From positions 29,264,001 to 29,328,000 of the forward strand of contig NC_086377.1 in assembly GCF_036588685.1 (NCBI RefSeq): a stretch of 64,000 nt of DNA, read 5' to 3'. Source of the stretch: Mytilus trossulus. Taxonomy: Eukaryota. The notes beneath the pieces were generated by a model, which saw only the letters and a list, made by a program, of their open reading frames with translations, searched no databases and was not told the origin of the DNA. A program made the translations under genes and the position numbers. Below, piece by piece: positions 1,393 to 53,509 of the stretch (its first letter is position 1; each line of letters begins with the position of its first letter).

Positions 1393-2029
1393 AAAGGCAG
1401 GACCGAATAGAGAAGAAAAATAAAATGCAGAACAGAGAATACAAATAACAAAAAATACAGGACAACATTTTTCCTACTACACTTGGGCATGTCAATAAAT
1501 ATATTTGAAAAGAAGAATCACACTGGATACATCATAAATAAGAACTCAGACAAATGTCAAAACTTGAATACATGACATTAAGATGCTTTTGCTAAAAATT
1601 GTAGATAGTTTCAACTTTTTAAAATTATATAGTTTATGCAAATTGTAAATATTAAAGTAACATTATTCTTATTTTTTTTAATTCCATTCAGTATATCAAA
1701 TTGTGGACACATCGTAGTGCAAGAATTCATGGTTCATTTGTTTATATCAATGCTTACTATAAACCTTCTAATGAATTTAATTCAAACAGGGTTAAATCAT
1801 AGGTAAAATGTATGTATTCATACTAATATATTGCTTCATATTTAACGATGGTTGGTTTTCAAATTTTTATGAGGACATACAAAATGATCGAATTGTATGC
1901 ATTTTCGAAATTCATTTAATGTAAACCAGTTAATATATCCGGAGTTTTATTTTTTCGTCATTTTAACGAATAGTTTCAAAAAGTTCCTAGGCGAAAGTTT
2001 AACTTTTGATATAAATTGTAATACACTAC

Positions 2030-3091
2030 CTTTATCTCCTTGGGTGCCTTTGTTTCCTGTCATTCCTTTATCTCCTAACGTTCCCTTGTCTCCTTGTGTT
2101 CCTTTATCTCCTTGTATTCCTTTATCTCCTGCTGTCCCTGTGTCACCTTGTGTTCCTTTGTTTCCTGTCATTCCTTTATCACCTATTGTTCCTTTGTCTC
2201 CCTGTGTTCCCTTCATTCCTTTGACGCCTTTCATTCCTTGCATTCCTTTCATACCTTTATATCCCGTCTCTCCCTTCATTCCCTTTGCTCCTTTATCTCC
2301 TTGTGTTCCTTCTGTTCCAGCCACACCTTTGTCTCCTTGTGTTCCTTTTTCGCCAGTCATGCCTTTAACACCTTTCATACCCTGCATACCCTTCATTCCT
2401 TTATATCCTGTTTCACCTTTCATTCCCTTCGTTCCTGACTCTCCTGTTGCGCCTTTATCGCCCAAAGTACCCTTTTCTCCGGTCATTCCTTTGTCTCCTT
2501 GTGTTCCTTTGTCTCCTGATGTTCCTTTATTACCTGTCATTCCTTTGTCACCTTGTGTTCCCTTATCTCCCGTCGTTCCCTTATCGCCTTGGGTTCCTTT
2601 ATTACCTGTCATACCTTTATCTCCTTGTGTTCCTTTTTCTCCTTTCATGCCTTTGACACCTTTCATACCCTGCATACCTTTCATTCCTTTATATCCTGTT
2701 TCACCTTTCATTCCCTTCGTTCCTGTCTCTCCTGTTGCGCCTTTATCGCCCAAAGTACCCTTTTCTCCCGTCATTCCTTTGTCTCCCATTGTTCCTTTGT
2801 CACCATCAGTTCCTTTGTCTCCATCTGTTCCTTTTGATCCCTTCATTCCTTTGACACCTTTCATTCCCTGCATTCCTTTCATACCTTTATATCCCGTCTC
2901 TCCTTTCATTCCTTTAGCTCCTCTATCACCTATTGTTCCCTTTTCCCCAGTCATTCCTTTATCACCTTGAGTTCCCTTGTTTCCTGTCATTCCCTTATCG
3001 CCGGTTGTTCCCTTTTCTCCTATCATTCCTTTATCTCCCAATGTTCCCTTTTCTCCCTTATTTCCAGTCATTCCTTTATCTCCTTGCGTAC
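2030..3091 (-). CDS. Collagen exon 19 (1062 nt, 118 triplets)
   Basis: Acceptor TTTAG|GT ACG CAA; donor AAA G|GTAGTG; continuous Gly-X-Y with no Pro. Confidence 0.92.
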
Positions 3092-6000
3092 CTAAATAAG
3101 TAATGTATCATTAGCATTGCTCACTTGCCACAGGTACAAAAAACTGTGCTCCAACACAAAATTACTTCGAAATATTTAACAAATTCGTACAAACTCTCCT
3201 TCCACTAAGATATAAGAAATATATCTCAAACAATTTAAACTTTTAAGAATCAGTCAGATTTCACATAATATAAGGTAAACTACATATAATTCTCACCTTT
3301 GTCACCAGCTGTTCCTTTGTCACCATCTGTTCCTTTTGATCCCTTCATGCCTTTGACGCCTTTCATTCCCTGCATTCCTTTCATTCCTTTGTAGCCTGTC
3401 TCGCCTTTCATTCCTTTTTCTCCTCTGTCACCTTGTGTGCCTTTTTCTCCAGTCAATCCCTTATCTCCTTGCGTTCCTTTGTCTCCATCAGTTCCTTTAT
3501 CACCGTCTGTTCCTTTTGATCCTTTCATTCCTTTAACACCTTTCATTCCTTGCATTCCTTTCATACCTTTGTATCCCGTCTCTCCCTTCATTCCTTTAGC
3601 TCCTTGTTCCCCATTTGTTCCTTTATCTCCTACTGTTCCCTTGTCTCCTTGCGTTCCTTTATCTCCACCAGTTCCTTTGTCACCAACTGTTCCTTTTGAT
3701 CCCTTCATTCCTTTGACACCTTTCATTCCTTGCATTCCTTTCATACCTTTGTATCCCGTCTCTCCCTTCATTCCTTTAGCTCCTTTATCACCAATTGTTC
3801 CTTTTGGTCCTGTCATTCCTTTATCTCCTTGCGTTCCTTTATCTCCATCAGTTCCTTTGTCTCCGTGTGTTCCCTTTTCACCAGTCATGCCTTTGTCTCC
3901 TTGTGTTCCTTTCGTTCCTTTATCACCTAGTGTTCCTTTTTCACCGAATTCTCCTTTGTCCCCTTGTGTACCCTTATCTCCAAGTGTTCCCTTTTGTCCT
4001 TTAGCTCCTTTGTCTCCTTGTGTCCCTTTTTCCCCATTCATTCCCTTGACACCTTTCATTCCTTGCATTCCTTTCATTCCCTTATATCCTGTCTCTCCCT
4101 TCATTCCTTTTACTCCTTTATCGCCGTGTGTTCCTTTTTCTCCTGTCATTCCTTTGACGCCTTTCATTCCTTGCATTCCTTTCATTCCTTTATATCCGGT
4201 CTCTCCCTTCATTCCTTTTGCTCCTTGATCCCCTTCCGTTCCTTTATCTCCTACTGTTCCCTTTGATCCTGTCATACCCTTATCACCCTGTGTTCCCTTT
4301 TCTCCTGTCATTCCTTTGTCTCCTGATGTTCCTTTCATTCCTTTATCTCCTTGCGTTCCTACAATTGATAATGCATATATAAAAATATGTTGACTGAGAA
4401 ATGTATATAAGAACGGTTGTATTAAATCTTCAACTAGTCGAATAAACATTAAGCAGAATTTGAAGACTCCCTTTGTACGATTTATAAGAAATTCTGACCG
4501 AAGAAAGTAATTTAAATATTAGTATTATTCTTTTCGTTGTGAAATTCTTCATCAATTTTAGATACAAATAATACTTTAAATACATTTGTTTTACTTGAAA
4601 CTTGTACATTGTATTTAAGAAATGAATGCTTCTTTTTGAACCTGTATTGGGGTGTAAAAGCGTTGACCGAAGTACATTTTGTATGCAGCGCGGAAGCGCT
4701 AAATTCTAAAAATGTGCGCACGGTCAACGCTTTTTCAACCCTATGAAGTTACAAAAAGAAGCATGCAATTCTTATAATTACATTTGTTTAGCTAGGATCA
4801 TGAAAACACGATTTACATCAAGTTGTAATATATTTTACCTGTGCACTTTATTATGGGACCTCGTGTCTTCAGAAATGATAAGTTTTATTGTGTAATGCAA
4901 TGGCTTAATGAATAACACGTGATGTGCAGTTAGCCAATCAGAATAACGTTTTATAATGAAACAAACATCTAATGTAATTATTTAATGTTTAACTCTATTT
5001 CATCCCATCTATAGAATGTATTTGAAGATTTTGGAAAATATATAGATAAATATAAGCCTTCGTATTAACAATTATAAAACCCTATGTTCGTGTAAAAAAG
5101 ACAATTTTATTGACAATGTTGTCGTTATTCAATTAAGAATCTTGCAACTTATTCATGTAAAATTCCCTGACAACGAGCCTTGTCCAACATAGAGATATTA
5201 ATACATAATGAAGATTGTTTTACTTTTTTTCAATTTGATACTTATATTTTATATTCGAGCGTCACTGATCAGTCTTTTGTAGACGATACGCGCGTCTTGT
5301 GTATATATAATAATCATGGTATCTATAATGAGTTTATTTAGCTATTATCTTTCTCTTTTAAAAAAGACCCATTCATTATCATGACATTGAGTTATCTATT
5401 TATCAATCTTACCTTTATCGCCATCAGTTCCTTTGTCTCCATCTGTTCCTTTTGATCCCTTCATTCCTTTAACCCCTTTCATTCCCTGCATTCCTTTCAT
5501 TCCTTTATATCCTGTTTCTCCCTTCATTCCTTTGGTTCCCTTATCCCCTTGCGTTCCTTTTGACCCATCCATTCCTTTGACTCCTTTCATTCCCTGCATT
5601 CCTTTCATGCCTTTATATCCCGTCTCTCCTTTCATTCCTTTGGTTCCTTGATCTCCCTGTGTTCCCTTTTCACCAATCATACCTTTGTCACCTAGTGTTC
5701 CTTTTTCGCCTGTCATTCCTTTGTCTCCCTGTGTTCCTTTTTCACCTGTAGCTCCTTTATCTCCATAAGTTCCCTTATCTCCTTGTGTCCCTTTGTCACC
5801 ATCTGTGCCTTTCTCTCCTTTCATGCCTTTGACGCCTTTCATTCCCTGCATTCCTTTCATGCCTTTGTATCCCGTCTCTCCCTTCATTCCCTTTGCTCCT
5901 TGATCTCCTTGTGTTCCTTTTATGCCGGTCATTCCCTTATCTCCTTGTGTTCCCTTCAATCCAGTCATTCCTTTGTCTCCTTGTGTCCCTTTTTCACCCG

Positions 6001-9000
6001 TCATTCCTTTGTCGCCCTGCGTTCCTTTGCTTCCAGTCATTCCCTTGTCCCCCTTATCACCATCTGTTCCCTTATTTCCGGTCATTCCTTTGTCACCTTG
6101 TGTCCCTTTTTCGCCTTTCATGCCTTTTACCCCCTTCATTCCCTGCATTCCTTTCATTCCTTTGTAGCCTGTCTCGCCTTTCATTCCCTTTGTACCTTGA
6201 TCACCTAATGTTCCCTTTTCTCCTGCCATTCCTTTAACACCTTTCATTCCCTGCATACCTTTCATTCCTTTGTAACCTGTTTCGCCTTTCATTCCTTTCG
6301 TTCCCATGTCGCCTTGTGTTCCTTTTGGTCCTAGCATTCCTTTATCTCCCTGAGTGCCCTTGTTTCCTGTTATACCTTTGTCTCCTTGTGTGCCCTTGTC
6401 ACCAAGTGTTCCCTTTTCTCCTGTCATTCCCTTGTCCCCAGTTGTTCCTTTCATGCCTTTATCTCCATGTGTTCCTGAAATCATCAAACATGGCATTGTT
6501 CATCTAATATGACTGTTTATTGAAGAAAAAAAATCAACATTTAAAAAAATCAACATGAATAAAAATCAAAAGTTGAATGTGAAAAGAACAAAACTTTGTT
6601 TACAATTCCTTTTTTAGAAAATCTCTTGATAGCTAAAGAAATCTTTAACATCTTTTTCTATATAAATGAAGTAAAACCTTCCTTTACATATGTTCATTAT
6701 ATTTTACATAAATAAGGCCGTTAGTTTTCTCGTTTGAATTGTTTTACATTGTCTTATCGGGGCCTTTTATAGCCGACTATGCGGTATGGGCTTTGCTCAT
6801 TGTTGAAGGCCGTACGGTGACCTATAGTTGTAAATGTCTGTGTCATTTTAGTCTTTTGTGGACAGTTGTCTCATTGGCAATCATACCACATCTTTTTTTA
6901 TATATATATACAGCGGAAGAGTACATTTCTCAAATAAAGTGACTTATGTATTAAAATTCGCAAATGTAGTACGAGTATCCGATTTTCAGATTTATAGCAT
7001 TAACACATGTAATGTTTAAAAAAAATGTAACACAATCAGAAAATCCTAGACCGAATAAATTTATAAAACCAACGAATTTAATTACTTTAATCGTATAAAA
7101 AAGTATTGTTATTGAAAAGGTTTGAATTTAAGCTGACCAAAATCAATCGATTTTACTATCGGATCTGGCTTAACCTCAGAACATTAGGACACAAAGTCTA
7201 CAAGCATGGGACCAAAACCAGCGACTGCTTAACGTACAGTTGGGTGTGTATTACCCAATGATAACCAAAATACGGGATACAAAATGTTGTGTTGACCCAA
7301 CTACGGGATACAAAGTGTTGTGTTAACTAATATATGGAATAAAGTGTTCTGTTAACAAACACACAGGGTAAAAAGTTTTATGTAAACAAATATACGGGGT
7401 GAGGTTTTTTTTCCCGATCTACGGGGTAAAGGTGTTGTGTTAATTAATGTACGACCTAAAATGTGTTGTTTTAAACAATAAACTAGATAAAAAGTGTTTT
7501 TAACCAAGTTACGGAGTAAACCAATATATCAGTAAATAGTGTTATTTATTATATAGTAGACATACATGTATAAATGAATACATAAATATTTAATGGGATA
7601 GATGTGTTTAGATTTCTAGGCAAAGCTAGACACGAGTATATACAACACATATTTTATGTATTCCTTTTTCTCCTGTCATTCATTTGTCCCCAAATATTTC
7701 AAGAGCCTTCTATTCACAGTAACTTTACTTGTTAGCCAACTATTATGAAATTATCACCAGTAATAACTAATAAACTAACAGTGAGTCTATAATAAGGTTC
7801 AAATAAAATAAAATAGAATGTTTTTGAAAAAAGCGACGCATAATTTTTCACCTAACATAAATACAATTGAAATAATACCGTACCTTTTTCTCCAGTCATT
7901 CCTTTATCTCCTTCGGTTCCCTTCTCCCCTTTCCTTCCTTTGTCTCCTTGTGTTCCCACCATTCCTTTGTCACCTTGTGTTCCTTTTCTTCCGGTCATTC
8001 CCTTATCACCTTGTGTTCCTTTGTCTCCATCAGTTCCTTTATCGCCTTGTGTTCCTTTTTCTCCTTTCATTCCTTTGACTCCCTTCATTCCTTGCATTCC
8101 TTTCATACCTTTGTATCCCGTCTCTCCCTTCATTCCTTTTGCTCCTTGTTCGCCTTTATCTCCTGTCGTTCCTTTGTCACCGTCTGTTCCTTTGTTTCCT
8201 GTCATTCCCTTATCTCCTTGTGTTCCTTTGTTTCCTGTAACACCTTTGTCACCTAGAGTTCCCTTTTCTCCTTTGTCACCATCTGTTCCTTTGGATCCCT
8301 TCATTCCTTTAACACCTTTCATACCTTGCATTCCTTTCATACCCTTATATCCTTGTTCTCCCTTCATACCTTTAGTTCCTTTATCACCTTGTGTACCATC
8401 TTCTCCTGTTGCTCCTTTATCGCCAAATGTTCCTTTACTACCATCCTCTCCAGGTTGGCCCTTATCTCCGTCAGTACCTTTTTGTCCTTTCATACCTTTT
8501 ACACCTTTCATCCCTTGCATTCCTTTCATTCCTTTATAACCTGTCTCTCCCTTCATTCCTTTGACTCCTATATCGCCTTGTGTTCCTTTCATTCCTGTCA
8601 TTCCTTTGTCTCCCACAGTTCCTTTATCGCCATCAGTTCCTTTGTCACCTTGTGTTCCTTTTGATCCTGTCATTCCTTTAACACCTTTCATTCCTTGCAT
8701 TCCTTTCATTCCTTTGTAGCCTGTCTCTCCTTTCATTCCTTTGGCTCCTTTATCGCCTTGTGTTCCTTCTGCTCCTTGTATCCCTTTATCCCCTTGAGTT
8801 CCTTTTACTCCGGTCATTCCTTTGTCTCCTTGTGTTCCTTTATTTCCTGTCATTCCTTTATCACCTAGTGTACCTTTCTCTCCTGTCATTCCCTTATCAC
8901 CATCAGTTCCTTTCATCCCCTTGACTCCTTTATCTCCCTGTGTTCCTAGCAATGATAAGAAATTAATATGTAATAATGACTAGATTAACTACATTCACAA

Positions 9001-12000
9001 TGCACGGCGGCATATAGATGGTTTTTTTCAGTGTCCTGCCTATTGTATTTAACCTGTTCTTGTCCTAAACATACATGACATATTGGCCACTGGACGATAA
9101 GCAACCAACAATCAATGGCTAGGATGACAAATTTTGACTTGTATTTTTTCAGTTGTAATCTATGCCCTGCCTTTTTATATTAGTTTATCCTGACTTTTTT
9201 TACATTAATTGTTATTCTGCCTTTGTTTTGTAAAGTTGCTCATCCTGTCATTTTTTTTCAATTTTTATCCATCAAAATAAAATGAAACTCCCTTAGGGCA
9301 CGACCACCACTTTGGTGTCTTCTTATGCTGCAACACCAAAGCGGAAATAACCGAAAAACACTGTTTTACAGGACCATACAAATTAAGCTACGTTTCTGTC
9401 TTCAAATCCTTAAGAGTTGTTTATGAGAGTAATATTATTCGTATCGTCGTATCTGAATGAATTTCAAAAGAATAAAAATAAACAAGCATTTGTAATTGCA
9501 AAGCTAGATTTTTGAACTCCTTAAAGAAGATATAAAACCATGTTGTTTCTTCGACAGATATGGATATTGTTGAATGAAAAATGGAAAGAATGTGTATGAT
9601 CTATTAATGCATGACACACAACCTCTACGTGAACATAGTGAATCCTATCAATACGAAAAGATTCCTTTTGTTCTTACTCTAAGTCACAGTATGGCATTTG
9701 AGATGGTTTAAGGCTAACATCTGCATTCAAGATGTCAACCATCGGTTAAAACGTATTTTTTTAAACCTTAGACAACTCGACTTTTTTTAACTGAGTATTG
9801 TGGTAATGTTAACATATAAAGGGAACAAAAAACATAGAAATCTGAAAAGAACAGGCATAGTTTGTCTGGCAATCTTATTGTATAATACACATAATAAAAT
9901 TGATTCTTTTAAATATGTACCTGTTCCTCCTTTATCTCCTTGTGTTCCTGGCATTCCTTTGTCTCCTTGTGTTCCTTTGTCTCCTGTAGTTCCTTTTGTG
10001 CCAGTCATACCCTTGTCTCCTAGTGTACCTTTATCTCCCTTCATGCCTTTAACTCCTTTCATTCCTTGCATTCCCTTCATTCCTTTGTATCCTGTCTCGC
10101 CTTTCATTCCCTTGACACCCTTGTCACCCTGTGTTCCTGGCATTCCTTTGTCTCCTTGTGTACCTCCAGATCCTTTCTCTCCCTTATTACCGGTCATTCC
10201 TTTATCTCCTTGTGTTCCTTTATTTCCGGTCATTCCTTTGTCTCCCAGAGTTCCCTTTTCTCCCTTCATTCCTTTGACTCCTTTCATACCCTGCATTCCT
10301 TTCATGCCTTTATATCCCGTCTCTCCCTTCATTCCTTTAGGTCCTTCAGCACCTTGTGGTCCTTCCTGTCCCTTATCTCCTTGTGTTCCTTTTTCTCCTG
10401 TCATTCCCTTATCTCCTAATGTTCCTTTGTCCCCAGTATTTCCTTTGTCTCCTACAGTTCCTTTGTCTCCATCAGTTCCCTTGTCACCATATGTTCCTTT
10501 TGATCCCTTCATTCCTTTGACTCCTTTCATGCCCTGCATTCCTTTCATACCTTTATATCCCGTTTCTCCCTTCATTCCTTTAGTTCCTTTATCTCCTTGT
10601 GTCCCTTTTGTGCCGGTCATTCCTTTGTCTCCTTGCGTTCCTGTGTTAATTAAATGTAAGTTTTTCTTTTAAATCTCTTTTTTTTAAAGAAGAATTTTTA
10701 ATATGAAAACATATGTATAACTAGATGCAAGAAGCTTGTATTTGACAGTTCAATGCTGATGGCAAAACATTATGAAATAATGCTGTTTGTTAGTTTTGGG
10801 GAAAACTGTAACGACTATGCTTATTAAAAGATCGCACAATTCACAAAAGATAAGAAAGCTTGCAAAACAAATATTAAAACTAATGGTCGGCTTCAAAAAA
10901 GAGAGTAATCAATGAAGAACAAGCCACATCTCCTAACTAAGCGCTTCAATGTATATTCATGCTTAATTGTTACAAAGTATTGATAGCTTATTCATCTCTC
11001 ATGTGAAATAAGTGAAAAAAATCCATCGTGGGTAAATATAGTAGACACTTTTGTCAAGAAGGCCAAAATCATGTTACATGCGCTAATTTACCAGGGCAAG
11101 TAGTTTATGATTTTAACAGTATTAATCTTTTACAATTTACTTACCTTTGCCTCCTCCATCGCCAGGTGCACCTTTATCACCTAGTGTACCCTTTGCTCCA
11201 TTCATCCCTTTGTCACCTAGTGTGCCTTTGTCTCCTTGTGTTCCTTTATCTCCCAGTGTTCCTTTATCGCCATCCGTTCCCTTGTCACCATCTGTTCCTT
11301 TTGACCCCTTCATTCCTTTGACGCCTTTCATTCCCTGCATTCCTTTCATTCCTTTGTATCCTGTTTCTCCCTTCATTCCTTTGGTTCCTATATCGCCTTG
11401 AGTTCCTTTGTCGCCTATTGTGCCCTTATCACCATCTGTTCCTTTGTCCCCTTGTGTTCCCTTAGATCCAGTTTCACCCTTGACCCCTGCAATCGGTAGA
11501 GTGAAGTTGTTACACTGATTTTAAATATGAAAATATACCTTGCGTTAGGACCAATAAATAGTCAGAATAAAAGGTTCAATGAAGTTTTCGTATGAGACAA
11601 ATGGATGAAAACATCCTATATCATATAAAAAAAAATGTCAGTGAATAATATAAGAAAAAGTGAGAAAAAGATATAAGTTTACGAAAAACATCATTCATCA
11701 AATTAAAGAAACGGTTACTTTTAAATGTGTCATCGCCTAATAAATGGTTCTCTTAATTTACATGGTTAAAATTAAGTTCAAATCAATTCCGAAAATATCT
11801 TTACGGGTGTTCCTTTGTTGGTTTTCGTGTTCATTCCGTGTGCGAACATGTTCCTTCTAGTATTTTTTCCTGGTGCTATCTTAATATTTCATATAGTTTT
11901 GTTCATTACAACTGACAAGGAAAAAGTAGAAAATTGCAAACGAGGTGGATTATATTAAACTCGATTTTTTTTTGCTTTCTTAAATCTATAATGTTAAAGA

Positions 12001-15000
12001 TGATGAAATAGCTCATTCGCAAATAATCAAAATAATGTCATTTAGACGGCAAAAACAGTTCATGTAAATCTCACCTTTATCGCCATCAGTTCCTTTGTCA
12101 CCATCTGTTCCTTTTGATCCCTTCATTCCTTTAACGCCTTTCATTCCCTGCATTCCTTTCATGCCTTTATATCCCGTCTCTCCTTTCATTCCTTTGGTTC
12201 CCTTATCGCCTTGTGTTCCTTGTGTTCCTGTCATTCCTTTATCCCCTTGGGTTCCTTTTGCTCCAGCCATTCCTTTGTCACCTAGCGTTCCTTTTTCTCC
12301 AGTCATACCCTTGTCACCTTGTGTTCCTTTTTCTCCGGTCATACCCTTGTCTCCATCTGTTCCTTTTGATCCTTTCATCCCTTTGACACCTTTCATTCCC
12401 TGCATTCCTTTCATGCCTTTATATCCCGTCTCTCCCTTCATTCCTTTGTCTCCTTGCGTACCGATCATACCCTTATCGCCTTGTGTTCCCTTTGGTCCAG
12501 TCATTCCTTTATCTCCTTGTGTTCCTTTAGTTCCTGTCATACCTTTATCTCCCAGAGTTCCTTTATCACCGTCTGTGCCTTTCTGACCTTTCATTCCCTT
12601 GACACCTTTCATTCCTTGCATTCCCTTCATTCCTTTATATCCCGTCTCTCCCTTCATTCCCTTTGTTCCTTTATCGCCCTGTGTGCCCTTTTCTCCTAAA
12701 TCCCCTTGTGTTCCCTTTTCTCCTGTCATTCCTTTGTCTCCTTGAGTTCCTTTCAAGCCGGTCATTCCTTTATCTCCTTGTGTTCCTTTATCTCCATCAG
12801 TTCCTTTGTCACCTTGTGTTCCTTTCTCGCCTGCCATGCCTTTAACACCTTTCATTCCCTGCATTCCTTTCATACCTTTATAGCCTGTCTCGCCTTTCAT
12901 TCCCTTTGCACCTTGATCACCTTGCGTTCCCTTCTCTCCTATAATTCCTTTATCTCCTTGTGTTCCCTTCAATCCAGTCATTCCTTTGTCTCCTTGTGTT
13001 CCTTTTTCGCCTTCCATGCCTTTAACACCTTTCATTCCCTGCATTCCTTTCATTCCTTTGTATCCTGTTTCCCCTTTCATTCCCTTTGTACCTTTATCAC
13101 CTTGTGTTCCCTTCTCTCCTGACATTCCTTTATCTCCTTGCGTACCGATCATACCCTTATCACCTTGTGTTCCCTTTGACCCAGTCATTCCCTTATCACC
13201 TTGTGTTCCTTTTGTTCCTGTCATACCTTTATCTCCAAGAGTTCCTTTATCTCCGTCTGTTCCTTTCTGACCTTTCATTCCCTTGACACCTTTCATTCCT
13301 TGCATTCCCTTCATTCCTTTATATCCCGTCTCTCCCTTCATTCCCTTTGTTCCTTTATCGCCCTGTGTGCCCTTTTCACCTAAATCACCTTGTGTTCCCT
13401 TTTCTCCTGTCATTCCCTTATCTCCTAGTGTTCCTTTTTCGCCGGTCATTCCTTTGTCTCCAACAGTTCCCTTTTCTCCCTTCATTCCTTTTACCCCTTT
13501 CATACCCTGCATTCCTTTTATGCCTTTATATCCCGTCTCTCCCTTCATTCCTTTAGTTCCTTCAGCACCTTGTGGTCCTTCAATTCCCTTATCTCCTTGT
13601 GTTCCTTTTTCTCCTGTCATTCCCTTATCTCCTAGTGTTCCCTTTTCGCCGGTCATTCCTTTGTCTCCATCAGTTCCTTTGTCTCCATCAGTTCCCTTGT
13701 CACCATCTGTTCCTTTTGATCCCTTCATTCCTTTTACGCCTTTCATTCCCTGCATTCCTTTCATACCTTTATATCCCGTTTCTCCCTTCATTCCTTTAGT
13801 TCCCTTATCTCCTTGTGTACCCTTGGTGCCAGTCATTCCTTTGTCTCCCTGCGTACCTGTGTTAAGTAAAAGAAAGTTGCTAAAAAAAATATTCCCTTAT
13901 AAAAATAGATTTTGTTAATCTAAAAACGTATGTATTACTAGTTGCATTAAGACATAGACAATATATTTCTATTGAACCACAAAGTTCAATTAGTTGTCAC
14001 GAATCAGAACGTATCGAGTAGCAACTATTTATGACTTTGACAGTTCAATTATTGATTTTTTCATTTATTAGAAAAGTTTTATCGCTAAATATCATCCATT
14101 TTTATACCAATTGAAATCTCTTGACTTAAGAGGTAGTGTTGTTTGCCATTAAACATTCTCTTGACTTAAGAGGTAGTGTTGTTTGCCATTAAACATTCTC
14201 TTGACTTAAGAGGTAGTGTTGTTTGCCATTAAACATTCTCTTGACTTAAGAGGTAGTGTTGTTTGCCATTAAATATTGATTTGCTGTTATTGAATATCAA
14301 TTGTATAGTCGACCACGGATTATCGGGCACGACCTACGTACCCTTTCGAAAAAAACCTGCGTTTGCCACCCGTTTCCATGTGGTTTGTTTAATCATACTT
14401 TTTTCTATAACAGTCAATTTAATTTGACAATTTTGAGAGGGGTTTCTGTGTCCATTTTTTGTAATACTGTAAAAATTCTGGGTAGAACTCTTATGAGACT
14501 GTTTGAAAGAAAGCTCTTATTCTAATTTGGATTAATTGCCATCATATGTAGTTGATCATGAACTATACGTCAGTGTGTTCCAGGTATTCTATAGGAGTTA
14601 TGGGACTATTTTTGGGGGAGTATTGTAAGATTCATACATGTACGTTGTGAACGCAACTCTTCTAAGTTTTTTTGACATAGTTACTCTCGTATACATATAG
14701 TACATTTACCATATTGTGACATGCCCGGCGAAGAAGGATTGTTTTCTTAGGTCATGTTGACGGTTATGCTTCGACTTATTGCCGCCCTAGCATCTATCAA
14801 CAATAATTCATTCAAGAAATACGGTAGCTTAACACATATGGAAATTCACATACGGAAATTAAGAATACGGAAATTTAGAATACGGAAATTTGATGTAGAC
14901 ATCATATTGTGTGGTGTCTTTTAATTCAATTGTGCACATTTCATATAATGTTACGTAAACAAAAAGCTACTCAATATTTCTTCTTTATGCATATTTTTTT

Positions 15001-27000: not shown

Positions 27001-30000
27001 ACATTTCGTCCATGTTGTCTCCTTATCAGATCTCAACTTGCTGATCATTTTTTGCTATTTAAAGATAAAAGGCAAACATACTAAATTTTGTATGACGTTC
27101 ATTATTACTGAACTAGTTCAAATATTTGTTAAGGGGCCAGCTGAAGGACGCCTCCGCTTTCGGGAGTTTCTCGCTGCATTTAAAACCCATTAGTGGCTTT
27201 TGAATGTTGACGCTCTTTGGTCGGGTTGTTGTGTCTTTGACACATTCTCCATTTCCATTCTCAATTAAAAATGGGCAAAGAGCGATAACTCTGAACAGCA
27301 GTCGACTGACATGTTTGGCCATTCAACTTATTTGTAGATTAATAAATAAATGTTTGGTTATTCAAGCTTTAGAATTTATCTAAAATTACATTAGGATGCA
27401 AACAAAACGCAAATGATTGGTAACAATTGTTATCAAAGGGCAATAACTGAAATAAGGAGTCGTCAGAAAATTTCAACTTTGTCTTGTCTCTCGAGCTGAT
27501 CATTTCTGATATTTTGAAATTTTCTTTTTTATCTAAAATTGTTGAAGGCAAAACGTATTACAGGCAAAAATAACATACAAACCGTAAAATTTGTGATGTA
27601 CGAGCAATAACTGTTTTAATGAGTAAAGACAGATCTCAGCATAATTCACACATCTACCAAGATTAATTATCTTTCCAATTATCTCTATTTATAGCAGTTT
27701 CATGATTAAAGACACAAACATGCATTTCCCCTCATGTTCTATTTTTAGCCATGTTGAATTTGGTCAAATTGTGAAATAGAATCAGAGGAGAAAATTTGTG
27801 CAAAGTTATCGCAAGACGGGCGACGGACGTCGAGTTATAAGTCAAGCTAAATTGGCCCTTTAGGCCAGATGAGCTAACAAATTGAAATGATTAACCAGTT
27901 ACCACATCAAAACTTTGTATTTTAATCACCACACACTTTGTATTGCACGATTGCTAAGGGACGACATCAAAAGATCGAAGTAGAATAAAAAAACTTAAAT
28001 CAAATAGTTTGGGGGTGGGGTAAAGATTCTGTAAGTTTTGTATATATAAAATCGATCTTTACATATATCCCTATTGGTCAATCAATTTTTTTCCAAATTA
28101 AGTTAAGAGGGGGTGGGGGATGGTCAGTAAAAAAAATGTGTATTAAGTTTTTTATCCTACATTGAACTTTTGATGTCGTCCCTAAGAGGACAACAAATGT
28201 AAAGTTTCACTATAATTTGTGTAGCATATATCAAATCAAATATATTTACAGGCAAACACAAACACAAAGTACTGATGCGCATAGTCATACATGTAGTAAA
28301 CAACTTTATGAGCGTATAACTGTATTTACTTACCAGGTTCTCCTTTATCTCCGGTGGTGCCTTTACCTCCGATCATTCCTTTATCACCTTGTGTTCCTTT
28401 GTCTCCTTGTGTTCCTTTGTCCCCTAGAGTTCCCTTTTCTCCCTTCATTCCTTTAACACCTTTCATTCCCTGCATTCCTTTCATTCCTTTGTAACCTGTC
28501 TCTCCCTTCATTCCCTTGGTTCCTTTGTCTCCTTGTGTTCCTTTCCCTCCTGTCATTCCTTTGTCACCTAGTGTGCCTTTGTCCCCAGTCGTCCCTTTGT
28601 TTCCTGTCATTCCTTTATCACCAGATGTTCCCTTATCACCTTGTGTTCCTTTGTCTCCTTGCGTTCCCTTCATTCCTGTCATCCCTTTATCTCCGTATGT
28701 CCCTTTGTCACCATCTGTTCCTTTATCTCCTTGTGTTCCTTTCATCCCTGTCATTCCTTTGTCTCCCATTGTTCCTTTATCACCATCAGTTCCCTTGTCA
28801 CCATATGTTCCTTTTGATCCCTTCATCCCTTTAACACCTTTCATTCCCTGCATACCTTTTATTCCTTTGTAACCTGTCTCGCCTTTCATTCCTTTCGTTC
28901 CCTTGTCGCCTTGTGTTCCTTTATTTCCAGTCATTCCCTTATCACCTTGTGTTCCTTTCAGTCCTTTGACACCCTTCATTCCTTGCATACCTTTCATGCC
29001 TTTGTAACCTGTTTCTCCTTTCATACCTTTGTCTCCTTGGGTTCCCTTCATTCCTTTCATTCCCTTGTCGCCTTGAGTTCCCTTCATTCCTGGCATTCCT
29101 TTATCCCCTTGTGTTCCCTTTTCTCCATCCATTCCTTTGTCACCTTGGGTTCCTTTGGAACCTGGTGGTCCTTCTCCTCCTTTCTCACCTTTGTCCCCAA
29201 CTGTGCCTTTACTTCCTTTCATTCCTTTAATACCTTTCATTCCTTGCATTCCTTTCGTACCTTTATATCCCGTTTCTCCTTTCATTCCTTTAGTTCCTTT
29301 ATCTCCTAGTGTACCTTTCTCCCCTGCCATTCCCTTGTCGCCTTGAGTGCCACCTTGACCTTTGTCACCAATTGTTCCCTTTTCTCCTGTCATTCCTTTG
29401 TCGCCTTGTGTTCCTTTACTTCCTTTCATTCCTTTAATACCTTTCATTCCCTGCATTCCTTTCATACCTTTATATCCTGTCTCTCCTTTCATTCCTTTAG
29501 TTCCTTTATCTCCTTGTGTTCCTTTCATCCCTGTCATCCCTTTGTCTCCTTGTGTTCCTGGTGTGCCATCTGCTCCTTTGTCACCTTGTGTTCCTTTGAC
29601 ACCTTTGTCCCCAATTGTTCCTTTTTGACCAGTTACACCTTTATCTCCTTGCGTTCCTTTGTCTCCATCAGTTCCTTTATCACCGTATGTTCCTTTCTCT
29701 CCTTTCATTCCTTTGACTCCCTTCATTCCTTGCATTCCTTTCATTCCTTTATATCCCGTCTCTCCCTTCATTCCCTTTGCTCCTTTGTCTCCTTGTGTTC
29801 CTTTCATGCCGGTCATTCCTTTGTCGCCTATAGTTCCCTTTGGTCCTACGGGTCCTTTAAATCCTGTTTCACCTTTATCTCCAGTAGTGCCTTTCATTCC
29901 CTTCATTCCTTTATCGCCATCAGTTCCTTTGTCACCATATGTTCCTTTTGATCCCTTCATTCCTTTGACGCCTTTCATTCCCTGCATTCCTTTCATGCCT

Positions 30001-33000
30001 TTATATCCCGTCTCGCCTTTCATTCCTTTCGTCCCCTTATCACCTTGTGTTCCTTTGTTTCCTAAAAGTAAATTGCAGACGTGTGGATATTTAAAAGAAA
30101 TAAAAAGTGTTACACATCAGTTCTATTATTGCAATGGTTACCGGACATTTTAAAATACCAAAGTAACCAAACCAGGCACTTCATATCTGAGAAATATGCT
30201 ATATGTCGTCAATTTAAGATTGTTTTCTTACATTTTTGCATTAATTTAATTGACAAGGATCACCAGTCCCTCGCTTTTCGTCTGATATCTTTTAAATAAC
30301 TAAATTATTTTGTTTTAATGCCACGTGGCAAAGGCCTCACGGTGATTTGAGATGAAGAAATGCAATAAAAAATAAGGGCTTTTCCTTTACTGTGTGTGTG
30401 TGTATTCTTATTTTGTTCTTTTTATTTTGCTATGCAAATATTGGATTTTGTGTCATTGGTAGATACTCTAGTCTATATCATTTGTTTTTTTCTATTGTAT
30501 CTATTTTCAGCGGCTGACATCGTTTTGCTGTTAAAAAAAGAATGTTTTTTGTAACATAAGGAATATACACCCATTGGTGGCATTCGGCTGTTGTCTGTTC
30601 TATGGTCGAGTTGTTGTCTCTTTGACACATTCTCCATCTCTATTCTCAATTTTATTATTCAGTGGTATCTATAGGTTATAAACATCGTTTAAATCATTTT
30701 TTGTAGTTATGATTTCATCTTTTTTGAGGATGGATATTTCATAAAATTACTTGTTTGATTCTAAATTCCTTGATAATGAAATGTGTTTTAGAAGTCACAG
30801 AGAAAATGGACATTGTTTCCATTGAAGAGCAGTAAAAACATACTATGTTTGTGTCATTTTGGTCTTTTGTGGATAGTTGTCTCATTGGTAATCATACCAC
30901 ATTTTCTTTTTTAAATATTCCCGTTAATGTATGAAAAAAAGGTGTTTTTTGCGAAATAAAAAAGAATGTGTGTCCCGAGAAATAAAATCACCAGAACATG
31001 AGGTTGGTTGGCGATGGCTTACTTTACCTGCAATTAGTCAAAGTTTCATACTACATACCTGTTGCGCCTTTGTCTCCTGTCGTTCCTTTGTCACCTTGTG
31101 TTCCTTTTAGTCCTGTCATTCCTTTATCACCATCAGTGCCTTTGTCGCCGTCTGTTCCTTTATCTCCAGTCGTCCCTTTGGATCCTGTCATTCCTTTATC
31201 ACCATCCGTTCCCTTATCGCCTTGTGTTCCTTTAGATCCTTTCATCCCTTTGATACCTTTCATTCCTTGCATTCCTTTCATTCCTTTGTAACCTGTCTCG
31301 CCTTTCATTCCTTTAGTTCCTTTGTCTCCTTGAGTTCCTTTTAGACCTGTCATTCCTTTATCTCCTTGTGTTCCTTTATCTCCTGTCGTTCCTTTGTCTC
31401 CTTGTGTTCCCTTGTCGCCTGTCGTTCCCTTGTCACCTACTGTTCCCTTGACCCCTATTAGAATGGATGATTTAAAAAGAAATTAAAGGTCAATAGCAGT
31501 GGTGTCGTGTTTAAACCGTTCTTTATATAAAATAGATGTGGAGATGTATAAGTTATTTTACGACCGTTAAATTCATACTGTATACAAAATATTACAATGG
31601 CCTCTAAATTGCTATTTCAAAATTTGAATAGTTGCAATGTATTGAAGATGCAAATATCACTTATTGATTTCGAATGTCCGAAACGCTTTCTTTGTTAACC
31701 TTCATACGGATACATCAAAACCCGAATACTTGATATCCTCTGAATAACAAGACCTAAACATTAAACCCCGCTATATTATTTATGTATGTGCCTGTCCCAG
31801 GTCAGGAGCCTGTAATTCATCGGTTTTCGTTTGTTTATGTGTTACATATTTGTTTTTCGATTATTTTTTTTTACATAAATAAGGCCGTTAGTTTTTTCGT
31901 TTGAATTGTTTTACATTGTCTTATCGGGGCCTTTTATACATGTAGCTGACTATGCGGTATGGGCTTTGCTCATTGTTGAAGGCAGTACGGGGACCTGTAG
32001 TTGTTAATGTTTGTGTCATTTTGGTCTTTTGTGGATAGTTGTCTTATTGGCAATAATACCACATCTTCTTTTTTTTTATATTAAAAGAGTTCTGTAACCA
32101 AAGGGGATCTACAATTATCCAAAGTCTTCTGAGCTGTATATTCTTATGCTTTCATTTAGAGTGTTTGTAGTATGTGACCCATTCATAACATTTTACATAT
32201 TGATTGCAAGACTTATGGACTTTGTTCATTATTGAAGGCAGAACGGTGACCTATAGTTGTTAATGTTTGTGTTGTTTTGGTCTTTTGTAGATAGTTGTCT
32301 CATTGGCAATCATACCACATCTTTTTTATATCAAAATTTTATCGTTGTTATGATAATGTTTCAAAAGTATGTTCCGGAACAATATGGAACACAAATTATC
32401 CAAACAACGGCTCAATCTCAAAGAAGCGAATGATATGACTACATAGTTACGTTTTTTGGTTTGTTAATTTTGACGCATTTATGAATAAGATTGGTAGTTT
32501 ACAATCTGATAAAAGAACAACGATTAAATGATCCTTCCATCGCTCATTGTTGAAAGATTAACATCATTACTATAATGAAAAACTAAACTTATATATATAT
32601 ATATTGTGTCGAAGTTTGTATACTTTCCTCATTTTTCTTCTCGAAGTTGCCAAAATTATATGGTAATCCATTTCTTTGTTCTTTCATTTGTGTATTCTTC
32701 AATTTGTTTGAACATTTTTCTCTTTTTTTTATATATATAAATTGGCAATTTTTTACTTTTATTTTTTATTAATTGACAATCTTTGTATTTTCGGTTTTGA
32801 ATTTTTTGTCTTGTCTGCACTTTTACCCAATTAATAAAATTCCGAAAAAAACCCTCATACAAACACGTTCAATTTCACAGTGAATATGTGTGTCAAGACT
32901 AAGTGTACATAAAGCGATGTCGACATGTAATTTTATGATAAACTAACAATTTATTATTTTAATGATTTGATGCAGAATTCCGAAGTTGACTTGAGTATTG

Positions 33001-36000
33001 TAAGATACATAAGTGTCTTAAAGTATTAGCTGTAAGAGCCTATAAATCAGGTGTATTTCAAGCTTCAGCGATCCAATATTCCTGTTTCGAGCCGTGTATT
33101 AACGTGGTGGTTGTATTAAAATAGTTTATTAAAATAGTTTTATAGAATTAAAAAATTGGAATTATTGGTAAATAAACGTTTAAGGATATTGTACAATCAA
33201 TGTCAATTAGATATCTGTACAAACCTTTATCTCCTTGTGTTCCTTTATCCCCTTGCGTTCCTTTCGAACCAGGTGTCCCCTTTCCACCTTTATCTCCTTG
33301 TGTTCCCTTGTCACCTACAGTTCCTTTATCTCCATCTGTTCCTTTAGACCCTTTCATTCCTTTAACACCTTTCATTCCCTGCATTCCTTTCATTCCTTTG
33401 TAACCTGTCTCTCCTTTCATTCCTTTTGTTCCTTTGTCTCCTTGAGTTCCTTTAAGACCTGGCATTCCTTTGTCTCCTTTTGGTCCATCTTGTCCTATCA
33501 TGCCTTTGTCTCCTTGTGTTCCTTTATCCCCTTGTGTTCCTTTCATTCCTGTCAGTCCTTTATCTCCCTGTGTTCCTTTCTGTCCAGTTATGCCTTTATC
33601 TCCTTGTGTTCCCTTCCCTCCTGTCATTCCTTTGTCACCTAGTGTGCCTTTATCTCCCGTCGTTCCCTTATCTCCGTGTGTTCCTTTTCCTCCTGTCATA
33701 CCTTTGTCTCCTTGTGTTCCTTTAGACCCTTTCATACCTTTGACGCCTTTCATTCCCTGCATTCCTTTCATTCCTTTGTAACCTGTTTCGCCTTTCATTC
33801 CTTTAGTTCCTTTGTCACCTTGTGTTCCTGGTTGACCAATCATTCCCTTGTCTCCATTTGTTCCTTTTTCTCCTTTCATTCCTTTGACGCCTTTCATTCC
33901 CTGCATTCCTTTTATTCCTTTGAATCCTGACTCTCCCTTTATTCCCTTGGTTCCTTTGTCTCCTTGTGTTCCTTTCCCTCCTGTCATTCCTTTGTCACCT
34001 AGTGTGCCTTTATCTCCCGTCGTTCCCTTATCTCCTTGTGTTCCTTTTCCTCCTGTCATACCTTTGTCTCCTTGTGTTCCTTTGGATCCTTTCATCCCTT
34101 TGACACCTTTCATTCCCTGCATTCCTTTCATTCCTTTGTAACCTGTCTCTCCTTTCATTCCTTTGGTTCCTTTGTCTCCTTGAGTTCCTTTTAGACCTGT
34201 TATTCCTTTGTCACCTTGTGTTCCTTCCTGTCCAACCATTCCTTTGTCTCCCTGTGTTCCTTTATCCCCTTGTGTTCCTTTTGGTCCTATCATTCCTTTA
34301 TCTCCTAGTGTCCCTTTAGCCCCTATGAAATAATGTTTAATGATGTTAGAATAATATCTGTATGTCATGCATTGTTATTTGCAAGGATGTGAAAGAAGTG
34401 CTATAAGGTCCGAGTACACAGTTATTTTGTAGTGCATTTCTTTTAGACAATAAATGAAAATTTTAAAAATCCCACCAGCGCTTTCTCAATTATATTTTTA
34501 CAGTGTGTTGTACTACTTTTGGGACAAATTATATCAAAATTATGGCAAACTTCATCAGCTCTAACTCAAAATATGGACAATTTTATGTTAAGGGGGTCTT
34601 GAAATCTTTTGACAGCTTCCAAAGTGCTAGTTTTTGACCTTTTTCAGCTGGACCTTTTATTTATTTAATATTTATGACACAATTATTTTAAAAGTGTCAT
34701 TTCGACCCCCTACTTGCTACATGAGGCATAAAACATGGATAAATAAATTTGGAAGGGGTATAAAAAAAATTGGCAGGTAACACACTGTCCACACTAAGGA
34801 CTATATTTGTAAAGGACGATAACTGCATACTCGGGCCATCAATAGAAAAATAACGTTGCTCAATCTGCAGTCGATGTTAAAGTTTTCTAATCCAGTTTAA
34901 AAGCATGCAATTAAAAAAAAAGAGTCCGCAAGCATTACATTTTTATATATTACTTTTCAGTTTTTTTCATATGATATGAATTGTTTACAATTTGCAATGT
35001 TTGAAATAAAATCGGCAACATAGATTTCTTTATGACATTTACTTCTAGTATACAGATAAATTATAATCATTGTAATCAATTTCCGTAACACGTGGGTCTT
35101 TTTAGTTGTCCATTTATTTGCTTCATTTAAAGATGACCAAAATATAACCTGACATAGTATGATTATAGTCAAATTTAAAAAGATAAAAAGGAAAGGTTTC
35201 ACTGTTTTTCTTCCGTTCATGTTAAAAATATAAAATCCTTATTTGGTCCATGTTTTATTACCAACCCTGTTCAATCCAAAGTTACGATAAGTTAAAATAT
35301 ATCTATAAAATTCTGTAAATAAGCCTTTTAGTTTACCTATCATTCCTTTGTCTCCTTGTGTTCCTTTTCCGCCTGTCATTCCTTTATCTCCATCTGTTCC
35401 TTTAGCTCCTGTCCTTCCTTTGTCACCTAGTGTGCCTTTGTCCCCAGTCGTCCCTTTGAAGCCTGTCTCTCCCTTCATTCCCTTGGTTCCTTTATCTCCT
35501 TGTGTTCCTTTATTTCCCGTCATTCCTTTGTCACCTAGTGTGCCTTTGTCTCCAATCGTTCCCTTATCTCCTTGAGTTCCTTTCCCTCCTTTTATACCTT
35601 TGTCTCCTTGTGTTCCTTTAGACCCTGTCATTCCTTTGGCGCCTTTCATTCCCTGCATTCCTTTTATTCCTTTGTATCCCGTTTCTCCTTTCATTCCTTT
35701 AGCTCCTTTGTCTCCTTGTGTTCCTTTTTTGCCTGTCATTCCTTTATCTCCATCTGTTCCTTTAGCCCCTGTCATTCCTTTGTCACCTAGTGTTCCTTTG
35801 TCCCCAGTCGTCCCTTTGTTTCCTGCCTCTCCCTTCATTCCCTTGGTTCCTTTATCTCCTTGTGTTCCTTTCCCTCCTGTCATTCCTTTGTCACCTAGTG
35901 TGCCTTTGTCCCCAATCGTTCCTTTGTTTCCTGTCATTCCTTTATCACCAGCTGTTCCCTTATCGCCTTGTGTTCCTTTTGCTCCTTTCATTCCTTTTAC

Positions 36001-39000
36001 ACCTTTCATTCCCTGCATTCCTTTTATTCCTTTGTAACCTGTCTCACCTTTCATTCCTTTAGTTCCCTTGTCACCTTGCGTTCCTATTTGACCTATCATT
36101 CCTTTGTCACCTTGCGTTCCTTTTTCGCCTGTCATTCCTTTGTCTCCTTGTGTTCCCTTGTCACCGATCGTACCTTTATTTCCTGTCATTCCTTTATCGC
36201 CTAGAGTGCCTGGGTTTCCGTTCATTCCCTTTTCACCTTTATCTCCTTGTGTTCCTTTCGTTCCTGTCATACCCTTATCCCCATGCGTTCCTTTGTCTCC
36301 TTGTGTTCCCTTATTTCCAGTCTCGCCTTTATCTCCGTGCGTTCCTTTGTCGCCAGAAGTTCCTGAAAAATTAAGGTTAATGTTACATGTACATGAGTTG
36401 TTTACACTATGAAAGTGTATTACAATCAATATATTAAAAAATATAATAAAGTAAAACCACGTGATTGCAGAGTATCAAATACGCTGACCATTTGTTATGT
36501 TGTTTGCACGTATTAAAAGAATATGGGTGGAGGTACTTTTTCCTATTTAGACATGTGTAGAGAAAGCCGTGTGTGGATTATTTTTGTATATGTTTTGTGT
36601 AAATACACAACTGTTTTATTAATACAGGTTGTTTTTAAATTATATATGCTACACTTTTTATCCCTTTTTACCGGAGTGGTATGAGCGAAATATAATTTGG
36701 ATTAAGTCGTGTATCAAACAAATTTCAAAAGTTGGGCCTAACTGACTTAAAATTAGGAGCCAACTGAAGTCACGCTTCAGTGACCGCACAAAAGGGGTGG
36801 ACCCTGCCCCTCCCCCTAGATTTGCCTCTGGGATTCGCTTATGATACTGATTACAACCTGTATACATTGTAGTTTTTAATCTGTTTAAAACAAATTTTAA
36901 AGTACCGAATAAATTTTTGAGGAAATGTCATGTTATATATCATTTTATTTCGTATACTAGTATCTTAAAAAGAAAAATACTACTGTTTGATAATCTTTTG
37001 TTCTGTCTTCTTTGTGTTAAAGTTTAAAACATCTACCAACGATGGTAAAGGAAAGGTCTCTTTTCAAGCCTCCATATTGGATTTTAAATAATCAGTGAGG
37101 AACTACAGACAACCTTTAAACTTTAATAGTATTTATTGAAAATCAGGTGCGGAGGCCAGAGAAGCGACATTTATTAATAATATCCACAATGTAGTACAAT
37201 TTCAGCCTTTATGAAAGTACGAATTTAAAAACTTTATACTGTTGTAACTTGTAAAGCGATATCGACTGATTCATCATAAAAGTCACGTAAAAAGACATGG
37301 AGACCTAAGCTAAATCTAAAGTAACCAACCGTGTAAAAAACATACCTTTAGATCCTTTATCTCCCGCCATTCCTTTGACGCCTTTCAATCCCTGCACTCC
37401 TTTAATTCCTTTATATCCCGTTTCTCCCTTCATTCCTTTTGTTCCTTTGTCACCTTGTGTTCCTTTATTTCCTGTCATTCCCTTGTCCCCTTGGGTTCCC
37501 TTCGAACCATCTTTACCATCCTCGCCGTTTACACCTTTGTCACCTTGTGTTCCTATTGCTCCTTTGTCGCCTTGCGTTCCTTTATCTCCGGTTGTTCCTT
37601 TGTCGCCTTGTGTTCCTTTATTTCCTATCGCTCCTTTGTCTCCTTGTGTTCCTTTATTTCCTGTCGCTCCTTTATCGCCTTGTGTTCCTTTGTTTCCTGT
37701 CATTCCTTTATCACCTTGTGTTCCTTTGTTTCCTGTACCTCCTTTCATTCCCTTATCGCCTTGTGTTCCCTTGTCTCCTGACGTTCCTTTGTCTCCTGTA
37801 GTACCCTTATCTCCTGTTGTACCTTTATTTCCAGTAAATCCTTTGTCGCCTAGTGTTCCTTTCATTCCTTTGACGCCTTTCATTCCTTGCATACCTTTTA
37901 TGCCTTTGTAGCCCATCATTCCTTTCAATCCTTTGATTCCTTGTGTTCCCTGTATTCCTGCCATTCCTTTGTCTCCTTGTGTACCCTTGTTTCCTGTCAT
38001 TCCTTTATCACCTTGCGTTCCCTTGTCTCCTTTTATTGCTAAAAAGAAAAAGAAAACGATTTTATAACACGGTACGTTCTATAAACTAACGGAGCTCAAG
38101 AAAGGGAACATAAGATTAAAATTGTCTTTTAAAGAATACAGAATGATTCATTTATATGGTTTGTTCTATACCACATTTTGTTTTAAGGAAAAGTAAAATC
38201 ACAAAAATACTTAACTCCGCGGAAAATTCAAACGGAATATTCCTATCAAAATGGCAAAATCAAATGATAAAACACATCAAGCGAATGGACAACAACTGTC
38301 ATATTCCTGACTTGGTACAGGTAGAAAATTGTGGATTGAATCTGGTTGTATAGCGCTAAACTTTTCACTTGTATGATAGTCACATCAAATTCCATTATAC
38401 CGGGGTATTTAAAACGATGTGTAAACACAACAGACAAGATAGGTAAATTAGTCACAATATGGGTACATCAGTAAGCATTGTGTCACAATATGGGTACATA
38501 AGTAATCATTGTGTCACAATCTCATAACAAACGATGTAATCTACTTCGTTGTTTGTCTGTATATATATAAAAAAAGAAGATGTGGTATGATTGCAAACGA
38601 GACAACTGTCCACATGAGACCAAAATGACAAAGACATTAACAAGTATCGGTCACCGTACGGCCTTCAACAATGAGCAAAGTCCATACCGCATAGTCAGCT
38701 ATAAAAGGTTCCGATATGACAATGTAAAACAATTCAAACGAGAAAACTAACGGCCTTATTTATGTACAAAAATTGAAGGAACAAAATGTAACACATAAAC
38801 AAACGACAACAACTGAAATTCAGGCTCCTGACTTGGGACAGGCACATACATAAATAATTTGGTGAACATTTGCTAGTTTGTAAATGATTAACTTGTACTA
38901 GCATTATGGCTGTACAGAGTCATGTAATCTGGTTCGTTGTTAGTTTGTATATGAACATTTGCTATTTTTTAGATGATTTACTTGTACTAGCATTATGGCT

Positions 39001-53029: not shown

Positions 53030-53509
53030 GTCAATATAAATGTTCTCGTGTCACACTTAGAATAATATTTTTTTTAAATCGATGTTTGACAGAATTTTCC
53101 CTGAAATTAATCTGTTTTAAGTAGTATTCTTCGCCAGATATATGTTTTAATATACTTAGTCGATTTGCAATGTTTGTTTTTTTATTTACGGAATTTCTTA
53201 ATTTGTTGTACAAGTAGACATGGGTATCGGTAATTTAGCATTGAGTCAACGGAGAAATGACGAGAAAAAGTGCATGTTTTTTACAATTCTAAAGTGACAG
53301 ACTTTCAAAAATTAAACTGTTAGGACCAACATTGTTTGATAGAAATATGTTTGAATATCAAGGATTGATTTGCAAAAGATAGAAAACGGGTCAAGTTTAT
53401 GAGAAAATTAAACTTTATTGAAGCATCTATGCATTTTATATTGGGAAAATAAATACAAAATGGCGGCTAATATAGGTCACAAAAGTCAAGTGATGTCGAA
53501 CTTAGTTGG

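Follow-up and report, generated by a model that had tools for sequence, protein, structure and literature searches.

The DNA analyzed here is a 64,000-nucleotide stretch of the 1.3 Gb genome of Mytilus trossulus (C5:29,264,001-29,328,000), referred to below as the window, and it carries on its minus strand the greater part of a giant collagen gene whose Gly-X-Y triplets are nearly free of proline. A six-frame scan of the window found 16 Gly-X-Y runs of 38-199 triplets each, which all lie within 2022-38030 of the minus strand, while the same scan gave no run of at least five triplets on the plus strand. The gene model comprises 22 helix exons, 16 within the window and six beyond its left edge, all with AG/GT ends, phase 1-1 boundaries that split a Gly codon, and lengths that are multiples of 9 nucleotides (nt). 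When joined, the helix exons encode 2,279 Gly-X-Y triplets (6,837 residues) with no interruption, and the helix length computed at 0.286 nm per residue is 1,955 nm (~1.96 micrometres) if every exon is used. With two candidate 5′ exons added, the frame stays open for 7,002 amino acids (aa), corresponding to about 692 kDa and an isoelectric point (pI) of 9.8. A first-pass annotation made from the bases of the window had given the gene an extent of 2030..38038, which holds for the helix exons in the window, but the gene continues leftward with six more helix exons and three tail exons.

Read in the direction of transcription, the helix exons in the window lie on the minus strand at 37346..38029 (exon 1, 0 Pro), 35337..36362 (exon 2, 1026 nt), 33225..34322 (exon 3, 1098 nt), 31059..31454 (exon 4, 396 nt, 0 Pro), 28334..30061 (exon 5, 1728 nt, 7 Pro), 24171..25574 (exon 6, 1404 nt), 22535..23164 (exon 7, 630 nt), 20206..21339 (exon 8, 1134 nt), 17318..17659 (exon 9, 342 nt), 12075..13856 (exon 10, 1782 nt), 11145..11486 (exon 11, 342 nt), 9921..10640 (exon 12, 720 nt), 7884..8945 (exon 13), 5413..6474 (exon 14), 3297..4358 (exon 15) and 2030..3091 (exon 16, 0 Pro), the last four being 1062 nt each. 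Exons 4 to 15 were placed by splice sites, phase and length, exon 3 from sequence only (AG/GT, phase 1 and 9n length), and exons 1 and 2 also by the splicing of the intron between them in contigs; exon 16 matched the Pfam Collagen domain (PF01391, E=2e-62). This last exon, counted as exon 19 in the first-pass annotation and otherwise as described there, ranks 16th among the Gly-X-Y exons and 18th among all coding exons of our model. It is followed by an intron running off the left window edge (1..2029, minus strand). With places left of the window given as the C5 position minus 29,264,000, the six further helix exons lie on the minus strand at -986..-2047, -3125..-4186, -4710..-5033, -5413..-6546, -6954..-7106 and -8529..-9770, and the three tail exons, whose introns are supported by contigs, at -11031..-11084, -12070..-12134 and -14129..-14317. 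Six consecutive helix exons (13 to 16 and the next two leftward) are each exactly 1,062 nt, or 118 triplets, and differ in sequence and introns, which suggests old duplications with conserved length.

The ends of the gene were modelled separately. An ATG/donor scan gave a candidate first coding exon at 44631..44700 (minus strand; one of 22 candidates listed) with an ATG in good Kozak context, 23 signal-peptide-like codons and a phase-1 donor. A splice-site scan gave a candidate N-terminal exon of 120 nt at 42952..43071 (minus strand, phase 1-1) that encodes 1 Cys, 4 His and four N-X-T sequons, ends in three Gly-X-Y triplets, and matches nowhere else in the genome at E<1. Upstream of helix exon 1, contigs have 275-294 nt that could not be placed, which is compatible with these candidate 5′ exons without confirming them. 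Helix exon 1 itself has two possible acceptors, 38029 and 38038; one contig ends at 38030 and another reaches 38038. At the spliced 3′ end, the helix gives way to a 102-aa tail (14 Tyr, 12 Lys, 10 Thr, 8 Ser, 6 Arg, 5 His and no Cys) followed by a stop and AATAAA. A Pfam scan of two tail pieces detected neither COLFI nor NC1 nor any other domain; the tail occurs once in the genome (E<1) and has no match in the other collagen loci examined, and its last exon matched nothing among proteins of 110-2,000 aa.

The scarcity of proline claimed in the first-pass annotation was borne out by the counts. There are 33 Pro in the 1,726 in-window triplets (0.64% of residues) and 43 in the 6,837 residues of the whole helix, i.e., Pro occupies 0.94% of X/Y positions and 21 of the 2,279 X positions (0.9%). 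As had been stated, exon 16 has no Pro in 354 aa (353 whole codons plus the split codon); the other 15 in-window helix exons have 0-7 each, two of them none. Likewise, Lys dominates the Y position (58.3% in the window, 57.7% over the whole helix), and the main X residues in the window are Thr (24.4%), Met (24.4%), Asp (22.1%) and Glu (8.6%). The triplets that had been named as dominant, GDK (365), GMK (236), GTQ (183), GMT (93) and GEK (67), together account for 54.7% of those in the window, but GET (68) edges slightly past GEK. The overall composition is 34% Gly, 8% Met and 0.6% Pro, and the helix has a net charge of +544, or +0.24 per triplet. The first-pass annotation did not bring out the record length, the division into blocks, the Tyr/His-bearing ends or the relatives of the gene. 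As a multiblock, the helix alternates cassettes built on GYK-GMK-GMQ-GMK with spacers built on GTQ-GDK. The cassettes, present in 80 copies, make up 35% of the helix, carry +0.62 charge per triplet and hold 79 of the 86 Tyr and 383 of the 574 Met, whereas the spacers are neutral (+0.03 per triplet) and hold 561 of the 575 Asp. The mean block period is 28 triplets (24 nm; range 12-58). In a crude test no lateral stagger, parallel or antiparallel, was preferred, as 50-135 of 200 block shuffles matched the best charge and hydrophobic staggers.

The giant collagen gene is under purifying selection. Gly is kept at 2,279 of 2,279 triplet positions, where ~105 substitutions would be expected at the rate seen at X/Y, and is encoded by GGA 1540, GGT 385, GGC 239 and GGG 115 times. 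The 80 cassette copies have 79 distinct DNA sequences, with a ratio of nonsynonymous to synonymous differences (pN/pS) of 0.057. Within the 20.5 kb of coding DNA, exact repeats reach 116 nt at most, and more than five shared 25-mers were seen in only 5 of 210 intron pairs. An assembly artefact or a dead repeat was considered and rejected as very unlikely, given the shortness of the exact repeats, the pN/pS value, the open frames, the AG/GT ends and the invariant Gly. Contigs were available from four public runs of up to three studies, labelled RNA by guess. In these, the intron between helix exons 1 and 2 is spliced out (3 of 4 runs), and the three tail introns are skipped at CT..AC ends (4 of 4 runs, 3 studies), so that four introns in total were seen spliced. 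None of the 11 listed contig differences in helix exons alters a Gly. In the last tail exon, seven of 11 listed contig differences are silent; the remaining four change an amino acid (R>K, N>T and T>S twice), and the indels, totalling -3 and -6 nt, keep the frame.

The invariant Gly and the PF01391 match place the gene by sequence in the collagen superfamily, and by the features tested it is not of the fibrillar, collagen IV, preCol or Scl2 type. Its split-Gly phase-1 exons recall non-fibrillar collagen genes. It shares an uninterrupted helix with the fibrillar collagens, which have a COLFI propeptide where the giant collagen has a Cys-free tail, and its helix is about 6-7 times longer and without a preferred lateral stagger. 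Collagen IV and spongin have an NC1 domain and an interrupted helix, neither of which was found here. The cuticle collagens of annelids are 1.5-2.4 micrometres long, which brackets the length computed for the giant collagen. That of Riftia reportedly owes its stability to glycosylated Thr at the Y position, whereas here Y is 58% Lys and 13% Thr; the suggestion in the first-pass annotation that glycosylated Thr might stabilise the present helix is weakened, as Thr stands mostly at X (545) and not at Y (290). The annelid proteins of Riftia, Alvinella and Nereis are like the giant collagen in their very long helix and high mass, if all exons are used here, and that of Riftia has a non-hydroxyproline stabilisation (PMC11766948), as is probable here too. 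The byssal preCols (preCol-D, -P and -NG) are also mussel collagens with a basic pI, and their ends bear His and 3,4-dihydroxyphenylalanine (DOPA) (PMC9999432), to be compared with 4 His in the candidate N-terminal exon and 14 Tyr and 5 His in the tail. They differ in having an interrupted core of about 150 nm with frequent Pro/hydroxyproline (Hyp) and silk-like, elastin-like or Gly-rich flanks (PMC9999432); the giant collagen is about 13 times longer, uninterrupted and 0.6% Pro. No preCol-type flanks occur in its 54-aa candidate head or its 102-aa tail. PreCols are products of the collagen gland of the foot.

Collagen-like proteins outside animals come closer in composition. Those of mimivirus (L71 and relatives, alongside the lysyl hydroxylase L230) are viral, their likeness to the giant collagen is compositional, and they are not known to have Met/Tyr cassettes or an intron structure. 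They have low Pro and frequent Lys at Y, and hydroxylysine was found in mimivirus particles (PMC9614988). Scl2 and other bacterial collagen-like proteins also lack Hyp and have about 30% charged residues (PMC3368898), but Scl2 is said to owe its stability to Pro at X plus charge pairs (PMC7824840), whereas here Pro at X is 0.9% and the KGD/KGE motif is three-fold depleted. The first-pass description of a Hyp-poor, collagen-type sequence resembling viral and bacterial collagen-like proteins in composition is thus apt. Among animals, the sawfly silk collagens SfC A-C do without hydroxyproline, but have 60-62 triplets and contain about 16% imino acids, Pro occupying 38-53% of X (PMC3790195), as against 2,279 triplets and 0.6% here. 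Across 57,104 metazoan collagens surveyed elsewhere, the median was 64 triplets with 29.9% Pro at X/Y, and the largest collagen domain that study recorded for any eukaryote exceeded 4,000 aa (10.1101/2021.10.08.463732), compared with 6,837 unbroken aa and 0.94% Pro at X/Y in the giant collagen.

Relatives were examined in 12 collagen-bearing regions of the genome, chosen by likeness to the giant gene and several of them covered in part. Three loci on C11 (46.218-46.225, 46.249-46.255 and 46.296-46.312 Mb) have one ~2.9-3.0 kb exon each with GYK/GQK/GNK repeats, about 330 triplets, 0.7-0.8% Pro, Lys at 81-87% of Y, 7-8% Tyr and +0.8 charge per triplet. They are almost without acidic residues, and such repeats therefore exist without salt-bridge partners in the same chain. 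As candidate polycationic DOPA-Lys collagens, these three are arguably as odd as the giant collagen itself. Another group, of four loci on C5 and C3, has 3-5% Pro with Lys at 36-39% of Y; in five further regions Pro is at 11-18%. One of the regions, C5:28.277-28.320 Mb, lies 1 Mb away and holds 26 Gly-X-Y runs (725 triplets, 4.9% Pro, GDK/GEK-rich, near neutral) in one or two genes. Predicted Pro-poor Gly-X-Lys collagens are thus a trend in this genome, with the giant gene longer than any seen in the 12 regions. In database searches, helix exon 1 reached at most 53% identity to proteins of 400-2,000 aa (best 120 of 2,114 listed), and helix exon 16 at most 52% to 50%-identity representatives (best 150 of 75,093). 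Among 264 matched proteins, 27 had less than 2% Pro, unbroken runs reached 377 triplets at most, and the cassette motif was absent from all; the length limits bar a protein of 7,000 aa and the composition correction penalises such sequences, so that a predicted annotation may exist. The ESM Atlas returned generic collagen clusters only for the helix and nothing for the tail. Searches of the open full-text literature listed no paper on the giant gene and no match to five peptide motifs from it and its relatives, although subscription journals and byssus or shell proteome supplements could hold such a paper.

The explanation we favour, and think probable by a modest degree, is that the gene encodes a secreted collagen rod of ~2 micrometres whose own stability is marginal, with modified lysines and covalent cross-links taking the place of hydroxyproline in locking it. 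A Gly that never changes at period 3, beside X and Y that are free to do so, is characteristic of triple-helix packing; this is the pattern here, and the chains would accordingly form a homotrimeric triple helix. The first-pass annotation had spoken of a triple helix outright; the collagen-type Gly-X-Y sequence is there, and the helix itself is deduced from it. The candidate signal exon would direct secretion. The intrinsic melting point would be low and tolerable in a cold-blooded marine animal, in keeping with the view, put forward for the sawfly collagens, that cold-blooded animals need less thermal stability (PMC3790195). Sheer length, offered in the first-pass annotation as a stabiliser, is less persuasive, as the melting temperature of Scl2 constructs levels off at about 150 residues (PMC7824840).

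Part of the ~1,300 Y-position Lys may then be hydroxylated and glycosylated. X-Lys-Gly is the lysyl hydroxylase consensus; there are about 1,316 such sites in the helix, and the PLOD glycosyltransferase domain (PF25342, over cut-off) was found at three loci (C12:3.587 Mb, C12:4.09 Mb and C2:40.80 Mb), which together make hydroxylation and glycosylation of these Lys plausible, as the first-pass annotation had suggested. The Pro-poor mimivirus collagens contain hydroxylysine (PMC9614988). The three PF25342 loci may in themselves represent an expansion of lysyl hydroxylase-type genes. Once the rod is secreted, cross-link nodes could be provided by the 80 cationic Met/Tyr/Lys cassettes, spaced about 24 nm apart on average, and by the Tyr/His-rich ends; the bonds would arise through DOPA-quinone-Lys tanning and perhaps between Met and hydroxylysine, and the neutral spacers would keep the rod soluble. 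Precedents are the cross-linking of mussel preCols via His/Dopa termini (PMC9999432), the Met-rich proteins of the cross-linked insoluble bivalve matrix and the Met-Lys cross-link of collagen IV (both PMC7591529). Such a rod would bear load as a fibre in an extracellular material or matrix and would lack the D-stagger of collagen I. If stability needs animal enzymes, the first-pass proposal of a hydroxyproline-independent biomaterial is weakened.

Several findings weigh against this modified, cross-linked rod. No trimerisation domain was recognised in the giant collagen. Splicing was seen for 1 of the 21 introns between helix exons (among 15 of 196 joints listed), and since all helix exons are symmetric, shorter exon-skipped chains are possible. 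In the last exon, contigs and genome differ by 11 substitutions and 9 gap positions over ~190 nt, and as the contigs depart from the genome by several percent, the expression seen is that of a close relative or a diverged allele. Charge also counts on this side: 31% of residues are charged, equal to the 30% of Scl2 (PMC3368898), there are 564 acid-Lys pairs within a triplet, and the GTQ-GDK alternation enriches Lys at Y followed two triplets on by Asp/Glu at X (626 vs. 402 ± 10), pairs that could bridge in one chain register. Together with the charge balance of the spacers, these figures favour a self-sufficient helix in which interchain Lys-Asp/Glu salt bridges replace Hyp, as proposed for Scl2 and put forward in the first-pass annotation. 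We regard this as unlikely. The Lys-Gly-Asp/Glu motif, worth 15-17 C in host-guest peptides (PMC7824840), is found 127 times where 300 triplet shuffles give 402 ± 11, the net charge is strongly positive and the cassettes are strongly cationic. Moreover, (DKG)10 is described as forming no stable homotrimer and like-charged decapeptides as repelling one another, Scl2 stability is ascribed to high Pro at X as well as to charge pairs (PMC7824840), and a preprint reports that KGE stabilises long imino-poor helices little (10.64898/2026.07.29.741348).

The excess of positive charge would be accounted for if the basic chain were one strand of a heterotrimer neutralised by an acidic partner chain. Designed Lys/Asp heterotrimers are stable without Hyp (PMC7824840), and the genome holds other Pro-poor Gly-X-Lys genes; among the 12 regions, however, the largest has 725 triplets and none falls below -0.15 charge per triplet, and we find such a partnership quite improbable, while noting that an acidic partner could have been missed in regions chosen by likeness to the giant gene and in part incompletely covered. 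A disordered or elastomeric, abductin-like Gly/Met-rich protein, or a polyproline-II bundle, would have no stable triple helix, and the Gly, Met and Pro contents fit this, as do the dominant triplets, which have low propensity on host-guest scales. Polyproline-II bundles need turns or short helices, which are absent here, and perfect period-3 Gly over 6,837 residues with 9n exons would be hard to maintain without triple-helix packing. Disorder is thus very improbable, even though the Met-rich, Gly-rich abductin is a random coil (PMC9999432). Least probable of all, in our judgement, is that the extreme length is never realised, either through over-assembly of a repeat or because only short exon-skipped isoforms are made. 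The coding DNA is highly repetitive with six exons of one length, and symmetric exons permit any skipping, with 20 of the 21 helix introns not seen spliced among the joints listed; but the exact repeats are short, few intron pairs share 25-mers, and each exon has an open frame, AG/GT ends and invariant Gly, which makes an assembly error very unlikely.

Retaining the rod locked by lysine modification and cross-links, we put forward a further and distinctly more tentative claim, namely that this is the longest unbroken, essentially imino-acid-free animal collagen helix described, that its 80 cassettes are periodic DOPA-quinone/Met-hydroxylysine cross-link nodes, that it founds a mussel Gly-X-Lys family, and that it is perhaps the molluscan counterpart of the giant annelid cuticle collagens. 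The gene in any case offers a natural, selected test case for an animal triple helix with almost no imino acids, and its modular repeats ease testing. How a rod 2 micrometres long could be brought into register, folded and exported with no known trimerisation domain is a further question that it raises. Should unmodified fragments turn out to be stable, they would make useful prolyl-hydroxylase-free materials; if not, the gene would point to a lysine-centred route to collagen stability.

Several other features lie near the giant gene. Between the candidate N-terminal exon and helix exon 1, the window has a short GGAC/GAAC-type tetranucleotide tract at 42,560-42,790. Elsewhere in the window, at about 53,400-56,100, are tandem repeats of minisatellite type that have long open frames on either strand, with opposite AT/GC skews. 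Just beyond the 3′ end of the collagen gene is a gene whose product is 100% identical to a Mytilus trossulus protein, with 84% identity in M. edulis and 63% in M. californianus. Some ~20-26 kb left of the window (L003:3777-9506, plus strand) lies an open frame of 1,909 codons that encodes Gln/Pro/His repeats as well as a small module rich in Cys and has a match in an uncharacterised Mytilus protein. On the minus strand, about 13.9 kb to the right of the window, a frame of ~100 codons resembles a Crypton/DUF3504 transposase fragment.

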